The translations under genes were made by a program, and so were the position numbers. DNA of 64,000 bases from a virus (Duplodnaviria; Heunggongvirae; Uroviricota; Caudoviricetes). Positions within the stretch are counted from its first letter, which is position 1; the number at the start of each line of letters is the position of its first letter. Below the pieces are notes generated by a model. The model saw nothing but the letters and a program-made list of their open reading frames with translations. It was not told the DNA's origin and did no database searches. The DNA lies in the IMG/VR virus record IMGVR_UViG_3300042348_001285; one strand, given 5' to 3'. Below are positions 32,898-38,352 of the stretch, piece after piece.

Positions 32898-33467
32898 TTA
32901 AATTGGTTTGATGGTTGCTTTTAGTTTGTTTTCTGGTTCCCCGGGTTCAGTTGTATCTGATGGCCGGATTATGAAGCTGAATTTCTTTTCAGGGTCTGAT
33001 AGCAGGTGAAAATCACCCATAAAATGTTTGCCTTCAGAAGATAACAAAAATGAATTACCCGGTGTCGGCGGAGAACACAAGGCAATGTCACCTTCTAAAT
33101 CGGGGTCAGCCTCTTCGATGGCTATTACTAATTCCCTGTAAATGGCAGAGGTCTTAGCCAGATCCTCATCAGTGGTTATTTCAGCCCTGACTTCATCCTG
33201 TACGGCCTCTAAGCGAGATTCTAAACCAGTGTCAAGCTGGATGGTGAAGATAGCTCCGTCATTTTCCGACTCAAACATGACTTCCTCGGGTTCAAATTCA
33301 CAGTCTTCGGGCTCTTGATCTGTGAAATCAAACTCCAGAAGCGAGTAGAAAGCTTCTTTTAGTGTGTCACCGTCTGGGCCACCCAGATAGTTGGCTATGG
33401 CATAGAAGATTTTGGGGTTTGCTAACAATCTGGAGACAGGGTATACAATTGACATAGTTCGGTCCAT
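32898..33467 (-). CDS. Hypothetical acidic protein
   Basis: 189-aa ORF with a promoter directly upstream. Confidence 0.55.
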   Translation of the reverse strand: MDRTMSIVYPVSRLLANPKIFYAIANYLGGPDGDTLKEAFYSLLEFDFTDQEPEDCEFEPEEVMFESENDGAIFTIQLDTGLESRLEAVQDEVRAEITTDEDLAKTSAIYRELVIAIEEADPDLEGDIALCSPPTPGNSFLLSSEGKHFMGDFHLLSDPEKKFSFIIRPSDTTEPGEPENKLKATIKPI

Positions 33468-33475
33468 CTACTCTT

Positions 33476-33503
33476 AGTATAGCAGGGAGGCCCCGTAAGT
33501 AAA
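33476..33503 (-). promoter_or_regulatory. Sigma70-type promoter
   Basis: TTTACT-N16-TATACT with an extended TG; ATG 8 nt downstream. Confidence 0.55.
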
Positions 33504-33526
33504 CCCCCCTTGTGTTTTACCCTGTT

Positions 33527-36295
33527 TCACTCTGGGTTTTCTCTAACTTGTTGGATTCTTTGCTGGGCGATGTCTAGGTACGTTTCTTCCATTTCAATGC
33601 CAACGAAGTTAAATCCTTCGAGTAGTGCAGCCTTTCCAGTTGTTCCAGAGCCAAGGAATGGATCAAGTACGGTACCACCGGGCGGCGTAATTAAGCGGCA
33701 CAAGTATCGCATTAAATCTGTCGGTTTGACTGTAGGGTGATTGTTGGTTTCACCATTGAGACCTTCGTTTCTGTCTTTTTTATTGGCTTTGGGGCAGTAG
33801 AAGAACCGGGCGGCGCTGCCGGTGTCGCCATAACCTGGGTTCACGCCGTCAGGTACGGCTCTGTCGGTGCCGGTGTTCCAGTTGTAGCGCCCAGTCCCGG
33901 CGTTGATCTGCTTTGAGTTACCTCCCCGGCTGATTCCCGTCTGTGGAAACAACCCCACCACTTCGCCTTCACCCGAATGGATCAGGTTGGCGGGCCAACG
34001 GCCGGCGGTCGTCAGCTCACCGCTTGACGTGGCCCCCGTGCTTTGTCCGCTCATTGCCGTTGCAGACACTACGGTTTCAGTGCGCACCATCACCGGCCGC
34101 GCTTCCGTCCCCACCCTGCACCCATCCACATTCAGCGCCCCGGTGCCGTGCTTCAGCACGTTGGCGGCCACGGTGCCCTCTGAGATGGGCTTGCGGGCCA
34201 TCACTACAGGCTCAAGGCTGGGGCTGACGGCCTCGGACTGGGAGGCGTCCAGAACCCGCCACGTAGCAGGCTCGATTGCAGAAAGTGTGAGGGTGCTTTG
34301 CAATAACGCAAGCGAGGCGTTGAAGATCTGCGCCGCAGTGGAAGCATTGGCACCGAACCCACCGGGAAGGCTGCACGCCTGGATGATGCTCTCGGGCGTG
34401 ATCTGCGATAGACAGTAGCTCAAGGTTTTCCAGTCGGTTGTCGTTTTTGATTCCGTTTCGGTGGTGGACGTTTTCTCCCTTGCACAGACGCCTTCCAAGG
34501 TGTGCCTCCATGACGAGGCAATGCTCCAAGCGATACTTGCCGCCGCCAATGTTGACGCCGATGTATCCACTAGAGAGCTGGTAGCGCCCGCCGCCCCAGT
34601 TGCCGTTTTTCTCTCCTGCTCTCCCTCGTGCTGGGTTGCTGCAGGCTCTTGAGCAAAACCGATCTTCGCCTCTGGCGAGCCTGCTTGGGTAGGTCTTGAA
34701 CTGCTTGCCGCAGCATTCGCAATTTGTAAGCACTGCGCCTCTAGTTCTGTTAGGTTCTCTAAAATTATAGCGCAGTAACCCATTGAGTCTACGGGCTTTG
34801 TGGCCCATGTCACGCTTTCAAAGGACGGTTTCAACGCGGTGCCCCAGCCGGCCCACTGCTGGGCTTCGGGGGTGATGCCCTGCGGCTTTACATAATCGGG
34901 GTGATCCGATCGCAGCTCTGGGCGTTGAATCACGCCTAGGCCCGAAGTTTTGCCAGCCACATTGAATCCCACGCTGTCATGCCCTCTGGCCCCTGCCGCC
35001 TTATCAATCGCCTTGCTCACATCCAGTGACTTCGGAAATCCGCTATTACCTGAAATAAACGGCTTACCATTTCTACGCACCAAGAACGCTCCGGTATCCG
35101 TCTTTAAGCACCAAACTTTATCACCGCTGTAACTAACTTTCTCTACGTTGTGTTTTGCCTGTAACTCAGTTGTGCAGCTTTTTCGATTAAGGTGTACGCA
35201 CCCTTTCCCGTAATCAATATGGTTACGAATAGCCAATGAGCTACAAATTGCTGAAACAATGTCAAGATATTGGGGCTTCTTTGACCAGAAAGTCTCAGCG
35301 GTCGTGTCTTTAGGCATAGAGCCGTCACCGTCAAGCAACCCCTTTAAGAGCGCGCCCCGGCTATAATAATCAAACTTAAGAACATCCCACTTTAATTGAC
35401 GGTCTGCGTAGTTTTCCAGCATGAAGTCAGCCAAATTGCCTGTAACGTAGAAACTGTGCTCATCTTTGTGATTAGGGTTCTTCGCTACTTTCACATACTC
35501 TGAGAATTTGCAGTTTTCAGAACTCAGACTATCCCGCAACTTAATAAGTGTGTCTGGCTTGGACTGCGAAAACATAATAGCTTTCCCGCCCTTGTGTTTC
35601 CAAGCGTCAGTCAACCACCAACCAATCATGTATGCGCGTGGCTCGTAAATACCCTCATTAAGATGCGAAGCCAACGGGAATACTTTAAGCCAACTCTTTT
35701 TAACATCACTAGCTAGAGTTACATCAAAGTCTGAGTATTCGTAGCGGGAGTTTGTTTTGTGTTTAAGGTAAACACGATGTTTTGCGGTAAGCAATTGATC
35801 AGTATGCCTGTTTTGAAAATGGATCATACTGTCTGGTGCATCATATACTAACACTTCGTTCGGAGTAAACCAACTGAACTCATTGCTGGTGTGATTCCAT
35901 TGCAAGATTTTGTCTTTATTTGGTTGGATATCTTTGTAGTGTTTCCACCCAGAGTCAGTCAAACACTCGGTGTCTTCCGAGTAACACCCGTAGACCCACG
36001 CGATCATGTCCCGAATTTCAAATCCCGCATCCTCAATCCGCACCGCCATCCGGTGCTGCGTGCGCGTACCAGCAAATGACAGTAAATGTCCACCAGGCTT
36101 CAAGACCCGTAGGCACTCTTTCCAAATATCAACACTTGGCACATCATAATCCCATTTTTTACCCATAAACGCCAGCCCATAGGGAGGATCAGTACAAATA
36201 GCATCGATACTATTGTCGGGCATTTCCTTTAATACATCGAGGCAATTGCCATGGTAGAGTTGATAGCGATCTTCGGAAACGTAAGGCTTAATCAT
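33527..36295 (-). CDS. DNA methyltransferase (N6A/N4C, beta-class) with intein and 202-aa insertion
   Basis: Motif IV CTDPPYG near the N-terminus, motif I VLDPFLGSGTTG near the C-terminus, NNHPTVKP. The native sequence IAWVYG|SGFPKS and GTALKP|.EP.VMARKP is split by two insertions. Confidence 0.9.
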   Translation of the reverse strand: MIKPYVSEDRYQLYHGNCLDVLKEMPDNSIDAICTDPPYGLAFMGKKWDYDVPSVDIWKECLRVLKPGGHLLSFAGTRTQHRMAVRIEDAGFEIRDMIAWVYGCYSEDTECLTDSGWKHYKDIQPNKDKILQWNHTSNEFSWFTPNEVLVYDAPDSMIHFQNRHTDQLLTAKHRVYLKHKTNSRYEYSDFDVTLASDVKKSWLKVFPLASHLNEGIYEPRAYMIGWWLTDAWKHKGGKAIMFSQSKPDTLIKLRDSLSSENCKFSEYVKVAKNPNHKDEHSFYVTGNLADFMLENYADRQLKWDVLKFDYYSRGALLKGLLDGDGSMPKDTTAETFWSKKPQYLDIVSAICSSLAIRNHIDYGKGCVHLNRKSCTTELQAKHNVEKVSYSGDKVWCLKTDTGAFLVRRNGKPFISGNSGFPKSLDVSKAIDKAAGARGHDSVGFNVAGKTSGLGVIQRPELRSDHPDYVKPQGITPEAQQWAGWGTALKPSFESVTWATKPVDSMGYCAIILENLTELEAQCLQIANAAASSSRPTQAGSPEAKIGFAQEPAATQHEGEQERKTATGAAGATSSLVDTSASTLAAASIAWSIASSWRHTLEGVCAREKTSTTETESKTTTDWKTLSYCLSQITPESIIQACSLPGGFGANASTAAQIFNASLALLQSTLTLSAIEPATWRVLDASQSEAVSPSLEPVVMARKPISEGTVAANVLKHGTGALNVDGCRVGTEARPVMVRTETVVSATAMSGQSTGATSSGELTTAGRWPANLIHSGEGEVVGLFPQTGISRGGNSKQINAGTGRYNWNTGTDRAVPDGVNPGYGDTGSAARFFYCPKANKKDRNEGLNGETNNHPTVKPTDLMRYLCRLITPPGGTVLDPFLGSGTTGKAALLEGFNFVGIEMEETYLDIAQQRIQQVRENPE
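34212..34808 (-). CDS. HNH endonuclease with two Zn-finger modules, nested out of frame in the methyltransferase
   Basis: EHCLVMEAHLGR...ENVHHRNGIKNDNRLENLEL (HNH_3-type), plus CECCGK..FCSRAC and CFHCG..FCNRAC. Likely start GTG 34733 after GAGG. Confidence 0.85.
   Translation of the reverse strand: MGHKARRLNGLLRYNFREPNRTRGAVLTNCECCGKQFKTYPSRLARGEDRFCSRACSNPARGRAGEKNGNWGGGRYQLSSGYIGVNIGGGKYRLEHCLVMEAHLGRRLCKGENVHHRNGIKNDNRLENLELLSIADHAREHHPGVQPSRWVRCQCFHCGADLQRLACVIAKHPHTFCNRACYVAGSGRLPVRGRQPQP
35045..35986 (-). mobile_element. Intein (314 aa) with LAGLIDADG endonuclease domain
   Basis: Starts CYSEDTECLT and ends FLVRRNGKPFISGN, with Ser at +1. Blocks QLLTAKHRV, YMIGWWLTD and LLKGLLDGDGS. 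Removal restores WVYG-SGFPKS. Confidence 0.92.
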
Positions 36296-38352
36296 GGTAG
36301 TTTAATTTCTGTTAAGTTTGCAATTTTAGCCCCCTTCGCACCAGGTTTCCCTAGCTTTATGGAAAGGTCAATTTTTGTTGGTTTTTTCTTTGTCGATACC
36401 CATTCGAAGGTAAATGGTTTCTCTCCGAAATATGTCAGGGTGGCCCCATCTGGCAACCATTGTTTGCCTGTACTTGTGGTTCTACACAGGGTTTCCCCAT
36501 CCATGGACATGGCCCTCAGTTGGCCATCAACCATGAATACGGCCAAATACTTGCGTCCCGAGACGTATGCTTCCGGTCTTGCGAGCACTACTGGAGAGTA
36601 CCCTGTGGAAATTACTCCCTTATAGGAAGCAGGCACCTTCTTTAGCATTCCGTCTTCGCACATCAGGATTAGCTTGTCGGTAGACCCCATGGCTAGGCAA
36701 CCCTTGGGCCCCTTAGACTGTTCAATCACACCTTTCTTCATGTCGATTTTTAAGAAACGTGGTTTTGCTATTGGGGTGGTGCCTGAGGGGGTAGTGGCCG
36801 GAGGGAGAGACCCTGCGTTGTCTACTTTGGGCCGGACCCCTACGGCAACAGGAACATCAATCAAAGGACTCCTACGGGGAACCCCATATTGCTTGTTGAT
36901 CCTAGCAAGTTCCTCCAACATGTAAGACTTTCGGGCACTGACATTATCGGCTTTGTCCCCCACCAGGGACTCTAACCTATTGATGTCAGCCAATAGCTCA
37001 TTTTTCTCACAAGACATCAAATCAAAGTCTAGGCCCGTTAATTGCCGCAATCTCATTTCTAAAATGGCATCAGCTTGTTGCTCGGTGAATTTAAGCGGTG
37101 CTGACATTAGGGACTGCTTGGCTTCAGATTTGCCATTTGCGGCACGAATACGCTTAATGACTAGGTCCATACGGTCAATAGCCTTTAGGAGACCATCAAC
37201 AATGTGTAATCTTTTGTTTTTTGCCTCCAGTTCATGTTCAAATTTAACATCAAGGCGACCCAATCTCCATTGGACCCATCGTTGGATGATTTGTACCGGT
37301 GATAACTCAACGGGCTTAAACCCATCGATAACCAAGGTTTTAGCTGAGTATTTGCAATCAAGGTCTGTATATGTGTATAGCAACTGCTTTACCAAATTAA
37401 TATCAGCACCAGGTTTGAGGACCACCACCAGCCTATCCCCACTAATATCACTTTCATCTGTGATTTCGGCGATCCCTTCAATACGTCCTTTTTCTAGCTC
37501 ACTCTTGATCTGCTCACCAAGTTTCTCTGGATTGGTGCCAGGTGGCAAACAAGTGAAAGTCAAGGTGGATCGATCCCTTGATTTTCCGCCCCTTTTCTGA
37601 ATACCGGACTCAACACGGGCCATACAGCGTATGCCCCCGATTCCAGTACGGGTATAAGCATCTAGTTGCTCGTCTTGGACGATTTGGGTGCCAGTTGGGA
37701 AGTCGGGAATTAGAGATAGGCTGGCTTTTTTTATATTATCAAGGTGGGCCTTTTCGGTGGGGGCATCCTTGCAAATTAACTTAATGGCTTCTACGATAGA
37801 ACGTAAGCTGTGGGGAGCCAAACGAGTAGCAAAACCCACGGCAATTCCTGAGTCACCGTTTAGCAAAACGGTTGGCAAAGAAGTATTAAACCTGATGGCC
37901 TCCCGCTTACTGCCATCATAGTTTGATTTAGTTTCCCACACTTCCCGGTCTTGTAAAAGAAGTTCCACTGCGGAAATTCGTAGTCTATTTTCTAGGTACC
38001 TTTCTGCTGAGGGGGAGTCAACTGTGCTTCCAATATTTCCGTGACAATCAATCCAAGGGACATTATTGTTCCAAGGAGTAGCCATGTTAATCAGGGCCCC
38101 GTATGCAGAACCATGGGGATGGTAATAGGCACTAGTTAGGCCCGTAGTTCGGGCACACTTCACATACGGTTTATTCGGAAGCAGCCCTTCTTCAATCATT
38201 GTCTGAAGGATGCGTCTTTGAACTGGCTTTAGCCCATCGCAAATGTCCGGTATCGATCTCCCGATAAGCACGGCCATACTATAGCTCAAATAGTCTTCCT
38301 TGAGCTGATCGACAAGATTGACTTCTGTGATTTTTGGCCTAGTTTTAGTCAT
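36292..38352 (-). CDS. Type IIA topoisomerase subunit A (GyrA/ParC family), short C-terminal domain
   Basis: IPDICDGLKPVQRRIL, YHPHG, catalytic SAERYLE, LPTVLLNG..GIAVGFAT, PDFPTG, QADAILEMRLRQLT. Confidence 0.9.
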   Translation of the reverse strand: MTKTRPKITEVNLVDQLKEDYLSYSMAVLIGRSIPDICDGLKPVQRRILQTMIEEGLLPNKPYVKCARTTGLTSAYYHPHGSAYGALINMATPWNNNVPWIDCHGNIGSTVDSPSAERYLENRLRISAVELLLQDREVWETKSNYDGSKREAIRFNTSLPTVLLNGDSGIAVGFATRLAPHSLRSIVEAIKLICKDAPTEKAHLDNIKKASLSLIPDFPTGTQIVQDEQLDAYTRTGIGGIRCMARVESGIQKRGGKSRDRSTLTFTCLPPGTNPEKLGEQIKSELEKGRIEGIAEITDESDISGDRLVVVLKPGADINLVKQLLYTYTDLDCKYSAKTLVIDGFKPVELSPVQIIQRWVQWRLGRLDVKFEHELEAKNKRLHIVDGLLKAIDRMDLVIKRIRAANGKSEAKQSLMSAPLKFTEQQADAILEMRLRQLTGLDFDLMSCEKNELLADINRLESLVGDKADNVSARKSYMLEELARINKQYGVPRRSPLIDVPVAVGVRPKVDNAGSLPPATTPSGTTPIAKPRFLKIDMKKGVIEQSKGPKGCLAMGSTDKLILMCEDGMLKKVPASYKGVISTGYSPVVLARPEAYVSGRKYLAVFMVDGQLRAMSMDGETLCRTTSTGKQWLPDGATLTYFGEKPFTFEWVSTKKKPTKIDLSIKLGKPGAKGAKIANLTEIKLP

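Follow-up and report, generated by a model that had tools for sequence, protein, structure and literature searches.

The ShiLan domain was described in 2023 as an enigmatic, horizontally moving insertion of 202 amino acids in the methylases of actinobacteriophages (PMC9957025), and in 2025 Arsenault, Gosselin and Gogarten reported for mycobacteriophages that it hides an HNH endonuclease gene out of frame (PMC11855218). Both studies cover actinobacteriophages; a BLASTP search with the in-frame ShiLan peptide returned nine hits in the later one, whose authors also noted a similarity of 11 residues at the flanks, obtained a model in which the insert, a hairpin, is kept clear of the methylase and, seeing no ribosome-binding site, proposed leaderless initiation in Mycobacterium. 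Here we analyse a stretch of 64,000 nucleotides (nt), called the window throughout, from the Caudoviricetes record IMGVR_UViG_3300042348_001285, in which a DNA methyltransferase (MTase) gene contains 202 additional codons that encode an HNH protein in a shifted frame. Sequence comparison identifies the element as a ShiLan-family member in a cyanophage; hidden HNH genes of this arrangement have already been published. The original prediction, made from the window sequence, had presented such dual coding as another route for homing endonucleases besides RNA splicing, protein splicing and intergenic location; this is correct, but is in print for mycobacteriophages (PMC11855218). In our assessment the insert is very probably a ShiLan-type hidden HNH homing cassette, read through in the MTase frame without splicing.

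Free-standing HNH genes, such as mobE in nrdA of Aeromonas phage Aeh1, and the genes of SegF-type 'intronless homing', lie between genes or split their host gene into two open reading frames (ORFs); they carry their own expression signals and spread by double-strand-break repair with co-conversion of the flanks. The window element is likewise a stand-alone endonuclease cassette with its own signals, but here the host ORF stays whole through phase and codon choice. With I-HmuI and other intron-encoded phage HNH enzymes it shares an HNH_3-type core, whereas no intron surrounds the window ORF and two zinc fingers of the form CxxC...C...C flank the core. Inteins with homing endonucleases resemble it in being inserted in frame into a conserved enzyme at a conserved site; the window insert differs in having no Hint domain, an unconstrained in-frame peptide and its endonuclease in another frame.

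The likeness to the ShiLan domain is much more extensive. Both occupy the same site (after ALKP and before xxEPxxxARKP) in the same MTase family, with the same 202 codons and the same frame offset; both encode a homologous two-zinc-finger HNH protein (52-55% identity), share the 11-residue flank duplication and have a homologous intein at the same upstream site, which in ShiLan lies in gp65, and no intron or intein signature is found in either insertion. They differ in host, which here is a large cyanobacterial phage of 46% GC and for ShiLan an actinophage, and the window departs from the published account in that it and most of its relatives have a sigma-70-type promoter and a Shine-Dalgarno (SD) sequence.

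Searches with the HNH protein support this placement. Its closest relatives in phage records (tblastn, 49-56% identity) lie inside annotated methylase genes of Cylindrospermopsis phage Cr-LKS3, mycobacteriophages Mantra, Bipolar and ShiLan, and others; the window and ShiLan proteins are 52% identical (tblastn 3e-46). At all four loci examined (Cr-LKS3, Mantra, Bipolar and ShiLan) the HNH frame is offset by +2 from an uninterrupted methylase ORF. To gauge breadth we used an alignment of the HNH core, a query independent of the methylase frame, against IMG/VR contigs and GTDB genomes. Full-length relatives, with identities down to 38%, were found at 45 loci, and all 46 loci including the window have the HNH gene at the same MTase site, inside an MTase ORF that spans it, in the same relative frame and with both copies of the 11-codon motif; relatives whose match is limited to the N-terminal finger and the HNH core occur as free-standing genes. 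The in-frame insert peptide, searched against a large protein collection in a way able to find open copies only, is carried by 103 clusters of PF01555 proteins. The ShiLan family is thereby extended to a cyanophage and to more than 100 metagenomic methylase clusters.

The features of the locus are collected in the table below. Every coordinate given for the insert in the original prediction was reproduced: it lies between the ALKP and SLEP codons of the beta-class MTase, the last codon of ALKP ending at 34826. Insertion-free homologues, proposed as the means of fixing the ends, are available in two forms which together define both. One is the nearest of the virus records compared (G001), which in the regions flanking the gene shares 92-96% identity with the window and whose empty site reads GGSLKP followed by ALEPITMARKPISEGTVAANV; the other is the methylase of Escherichia phage BUCT618 (L096 881-1489 (+)), in which the ShiLan site is also empty. 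The degenerate flank duplication is genuine, and the empty site of G001 assigns its copies. At the nucleotide level the empty allele is matched exactly by the 3' half of copy 2 but not by copy 1, so copy 2 is native to the MTase and copy 1 belongs to the element. For the same reason, the idea that copy 1 is refreshed from recipient alleles during homing was set aside.

Features of the MTase locus in the window (residues are numbered on the 922-residue product)
Feature	Position	Strand	Remarks
Beta-class N6/N4 DNA MTase ORF (predicted)	33527..36295	(-)	922 codons, ATG 36295 to TGA 33527, uninterrupted
Intein with LAGLIDADG endonuclease domain	35045-35986	(-)	residues 104-417, 314 residues; site between WVYG and SGFPKS
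ShiLan-type insertion	34220..34825	(-)	606 nt, 202 codons, free of stops in the MTase frame; residues 491-692
Copy 1 of the 11-codon motif, SFESVTWATKP	34793..34825	(-)	element-borne degenerate mimic of the native strand
Promoter-like site TAGACT-N16-TATAAT	34764..34791	(-)	TAGACT 34791-34786, TATAAT 34769-34764
SD core GAGG	34738..34741	(-)	4 nt before the HNH GTG 34733
HNH homing-type endonuclease gene (predicted)	34212..34733	(-)	173 codons and TGA, GTG start, +2 frame relative to the MTase
Copy 2 of the 11-codon motif, SLEPVVMARKP	34187..34219	(-)	native MTase strand; contains the HNH stop 34212-34214

The host ORF matches the N6_N4 DNA methylase profile PF01555 (1.3e-32), with DPPY (motif IV) at residues 36-39 and the S-adenosylmethionine-binding DPFLGSGTTG (motif I, FxGxG) near residue 878. 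The 922-residue product has, by sequence and by model, the motif order of beta-class N6/N4 enzymes and an MTase fold, methyl transfer itself being a prediction. The model was made with AlphaFold2 from an alignment of 100 insert-bearing homologues. Its exteins align to M.BceJIV (Z 23.5 over 226 residues) and to CcrM (Z 23.0), and they model as a complete beta-class MTase in which copy 2 serves as a core strand (residues 697-701); the mean of the predicted local distance difference test (pLDDT) is 92-94 in the blocks covering residues 701-720 and 66 in block 691-700. The peptide that the MTase frame specifies within the insert had been called featureless. It matches no Pfam family, as that description implies, but it is predicted to form long helices (504-533 and 575-609), which agrees with the published ShiLan model; the peptide is therefore not wholly without features.

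The shifted frame does encode an HNH protein, as the original prediction had it: Pfam HNH_3 matches at 3e-10 (40 bits against a curated cut-off of 24.8) and PHROG HNH families at 3.6e-19, and the TGA of the gene falls within the CTT GAG codons of the MTase. The gene lies in a longer +2-frame ORF of 198 codons (34212-34808 (-)), and its product is laid out as zinc finger, HNH core, zinc finger. Eight Cys residues, H71, H90, H91, N99, N103 and H112 are invariant in 30 HNH sequences, and the protein modelled alone reaches a mean pLDDT of 80. In two relatives (L012, about 655, and L013, about 3429) a stop close to the last zinc-finger Cys shortens the HNH frame by some 14 codons, and the MTase frame is open; these genes may be decaying endonucleases inside retained inserts.

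If the same bases are to serve both genes, synonymous codons of the HNH gene must be chosen so that the MTase frame has no stop. We permuted synonymous codons within each HNH ORF, a conservative procedure because each ORF keeps its own codon usage. For the window alone, the probability of a stop-free MTase frame is 0.08-0.09. Across 36 non-redundant loci (GC 36-67%), no MTase-frame stop was observed against 56.1 expected (sum of log10 P, -37.6), while the third frame of the same loci has 299 stops against 323 expected, so there is no avoidance there. Substitution patterns are equally clear. The ratio of nonsynonymous to synonymous substitution rates (dN/dS) in the overlap is 0.09-0.32 when the bases are read in the HNH frame and 0.66-1.5 when they are read as MTase codons, so that of the two readings of the insert it is HNH that is under constraint; in insert-bearing alleles the MTase flanks give 0.04-0.3. 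Stop avoidance in one frame and purifying selection in the other, both suggested beforehand as tests of dual coding, are thus found and quantified. A codon alignment of 26 non-redundant loci leads to the same picture, in that nucleotide diversity peaks at the MTase third position in both flanks and at the MTase second position, equivalent to the third in the HNH frame, in the core of the insert; the pattern changes phase at the ends of the element. Judged from these patterns, the MTase frame is constrained only against stops within the insert, and the MTase outside it is under purifying selection.

The element also carries conserved expression signals. The candidate promoter noted in the original prediction matches 10 of 12 consensus positions and is the best promoter-like site of the region, and the GAGG ahead of GTG 34733 was located at the spacing given in the table. 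Nearly every locus has a start codon, ATG or GTG, 12-18 nt ahead of the first Cys codon, with a GGAGG-like core upstream; an SD core precedes the HNH start at 28 of 35 loci, and in ShiLan, Mantra and Bipolar the core is GGAGG, placed 4 nt ahead of the HNH GTG. Upstream, the loci also align in the position of a -10 box, whose end lies 33 nt from the start codon in most of them and 30 nt from it in the window; a TTGACA-like -35 box often accompanies it at a spacing of 16-18 nt. The -10 box matches at 5/6 positions or better in 25 of the 35 loci and the full promoter at 9/12 or better in 22, three loci having a perfect promoter. The peptide RLEA(R)LW, conserved in the MTase frame, is the SD sequence and the HNH start codon read in the other frame. 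Since promoter, SD sequence and start codon are conserved across loci, we regard the element as a self-contained expression cassette. Leaderless, Mycobacterium-specific translation becomes unnecessary because the window and most relatives, ShiLan included, have an SD sequence before the start; at the level of sequence, the conserved signals argue against the published idea of leaderless initiation without a ribosome-binding site, and revise the tie to Mycobacterium. Termination at the HNH stop with reinitiation at an ATG 11 nt beyond it, giving a split MTase, was considered and rejected: the N-terminal part has no stop, and the Met is native, being present in G001 too.

Comparison with near relatives indicates that the element moves. 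The MTase of G001 (L099 3028-4092 (-)) has 352 residues and lacks both the intein and the HNH insert, yet its N-terminal 103 residues are identical to those of the window. The outer parts of the two genes are 87-100% identical and the middle (about 35044-33800) 31-69%, except for one conserved block of 90 nt. Conversely, locus L006 (62% GC) has an element 97.7% identical to that of the window over 559 nt, in an MTase without an intein whose N-terminal part is 78% identical. Against L005 and L007 the window shows mosaic identity, with breakpoints inside and outside the HNH gene. Presence/absence polymorphism and mosaic identity are, as far as alignments can tell, what homing with co-conversion and recombination within the gene should leave behind. 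Composition is a different matter. The insert has 59% GC, and insert plus flanks (about 33750-35044) range over 55-68% in a window of 46%; we dropped this GC island, at first taken for a co-conversion tract, as proof of import, since the insert-free allele of G001 is GC-rich in the middle too, and composition alone therefore does not establish import. The sequence discontinuity relative to G001, L005, L006 and L007, unlike composition, does show it. A separate patch was seen in the C-terminal half of the MTase, where 180 nt of the window (33800-33979) are 88-100% identical to L005 and the adjacent bins 48-69%; on this alignment recombination has left a second patch here, beyond the ends of the element.

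Taken together, these observations suggest the following course of events. The element is a cassette of 202 codons in +2 phase, containing a promoter, an SD sequence, a GTG start and an ORF for a two-zinc-finger HNH protein, in which synonymous codon choice leaves the MTase frame without a stop. Since that frame is stop-free, ribosomes would read straight through the insert, and read-through would yield an MTase with a largely helical excursion of about 200 residues, with neither RNA nor protein splicing. The excursion would exit the MTase fold just ahead of a core strand, and on its return native copy 2 would complete the fold, so that MTase activity could be retained. The HNH protein would arise as a separate product of internal initiation, directed by signals that the element itself supplies; it presumably cuts insert-free alleles at the empty site, after which repair would copy the element in (homing). 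So read, the arrangement shows a selfish endonuclease gene living in an enzyme gene without RNA or protein splicing. The concept is already published, and the window adds scope and tests to it, not a new principle. The window phage and a sister of the G001 type, in which both sites are empty, make a natural pair for tests of homing and of a methylase with a 200-residue loop.

Several observations weigh against a homing cassette that is read through in a working MTase. Frequent stops in the MTase frame of homologous inserts had been named as a finding that would speak against dual coding; they are not frequent, but one of the 46 inserts has such a stop (L009). That stop, at 2957-2959 (between DIIL and NLIRLEA), lies just upstream of the HNH start and divides the MTase into two ORFs, 293 and 357 codons long; a mutation or a tolerated split may account for it, as may a sequencing error. 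For the model of the 922-residue product pLDDT averages 59, and in copy 1, a low-confidence part, it is below 50. For the HNH model, the best PDB match (Foldseek) is I-HmuI (1U3E), at E 0.02 and TM 0.32; because this top match is weak, the HNH identification rests on sequence profiles. The ShiLan authors note that the MTase is dispensable in ShiLan relatives, and stop avoidance could in part serve to prevent polarity on downstream genes and not to keep the MTase active. Lastly, the model, in which copy 2 serves as the strand, offers no reason for the conservation of copy 1 in the MTase frame.

This last point deserves closer attention. Within copy 1 the third codon positions of the MTase frame are the most diverse (0.60; the other two, 0.30 and 0.28), and residues E493, A498, K500 and P501 are each conserved in at least 90% of 100 proteins. 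Over more than 100 diverged copies of the element, copy 1 is conserved when read as methylase, and its variation is of the wobble type. In alignments this looks like selection at the protein level on an element-borne mimic of a host strand. One may speculate that the element is built for in-frame residence, its phase, its stop-free codons, its helical hairpin and above all copy 1 being adaptations that let the methylase fold around it; we advance this only tentatively, as a possibility that we would not at present bet on. If true, phase-shifted read-through cassettes would be a third general homing strategy beside introns and inteins, one that spans cyanobacterial, actinobacterial and proteobacterial phages and travels with a portable promoter.

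What other explanations could account for the data? One is that the HNH protein never was, or has ceased to be, a homing enzyme, and instead partners the MTase in a restriction-modification or anti-defence module, or is joined to the N-terminal part of the MTase by a frameshift. Within our sample the HNH family is tied to this MTase site without exception, its frame is open far upstream of the conserved start in several loci, and co-option was raised as a possibility in PMC11855218. On the other side, the conserved promoter, SD sequence and start codon point to a separate protein, and no conserved slippery site was seen in the 5' alignment; the presence or absence of the element between near-identical phages and the occurrence of near-identical elements in diverged MTases are a signature of homing. 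We consider such a role very unlikely. Lower still we place removal of the insert from the RNA, by a group I or group II intron or another ribozyme, or its translational bypassing, with the open MTase frame incidental. Group I introns of phages frequently carry HNH genes, and there is a resemblance between the 3' exon and the opening 11 codons of the insert, a possible guide-sequence feature that was considered in PMC11855218. But neither an intron model nor any relevant Rfam family was found in 33000-37000, even at E <= 10, and the published RNAweasel and MFannot analyses were negative too; promoter, SD sequence and HNH ORF occupy all but about 35 of the 606 nt, which leaves no space for a ribozyme core; and a spliced insert would not need the stop avoidance that the 36 loci display.

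Removal at the protein level, by an atypical intein or other self-removing segment, is rarer still among the outcomes we would expect, even though the insert is in frame, occupies a conserved site, is followed by Ser693 and shares its gene with a true intein. Tested as an intein, the insert matched no Pfam family, its model of long helices has no Hint fold, and it ends in Pro, not in Asn or Gln; its MTase-frame peptide is also neutral (dN/dS about 1). No less improbable is a dead MTase gene broken by a homing endonuclease gene, its frame open by chance in GC-rich sequence, as the window taken alone (59% GC in the insert, and the permutation probability given above) might allow, since the 36 copies without an MTase-frame stop include some of 36-44% GC with 15-21 stops in the third frame, the flanks of insert-bearing alleles are under purifying selection and the exteins model as a complete MTase.

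The original prediction had reported no intron or intein motifs around the insert, which holds for the insert itself and not for the gene, where an intein had gone unreported. Separated from the insertion by 219 nt on the upstream side, it has Cys as its first and Asn as its last residue, with Ser as the next one (GN, then SGFPKS), and shows the intein features tested, including a Hint fold: residues 102-419 of the MTase model match a solved split intein (Z 12.7); a PDB sequence search with the intein gave no match. Its LAGLIDADG_3 domain scores 23.6 bits against a cut-off of 22.5. The intein of ShiLan gp65 is 30% identical over the full length (E 1e-27) and sits at the identical site; the MTases of the sister record G001 and of L005 and L006 have no intein.

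Three further observations concern related methylases and the neighbouring gene. The BUCT618 methylase has a different HNH ORF, also of 202 codons and in the +2 frame, as an in-frame insertion elsewhere, between SGFPKSANVSKQID and SKAIDKAAGAERE; Pfam HNH_2 and HNH score above cut-off and the insertion flanks are duplicated, while no relative of this second hidden HNH gene was found in the phage collection. Mantra gp64 (L002 about 1150-1700) has an additional N-terminal insertion with a LIDGEG motif after DPPY, which looks like the 'second endonuclease' of PMC9957025. In the window, the gene upstream of the MTase (36292-38352 (-)) matches DNA topoisomerase II/GyrA-like proteins (PHROG 551, 6e-95), and its stop overlaps the MTase start in an ATGA at 36292-36295.

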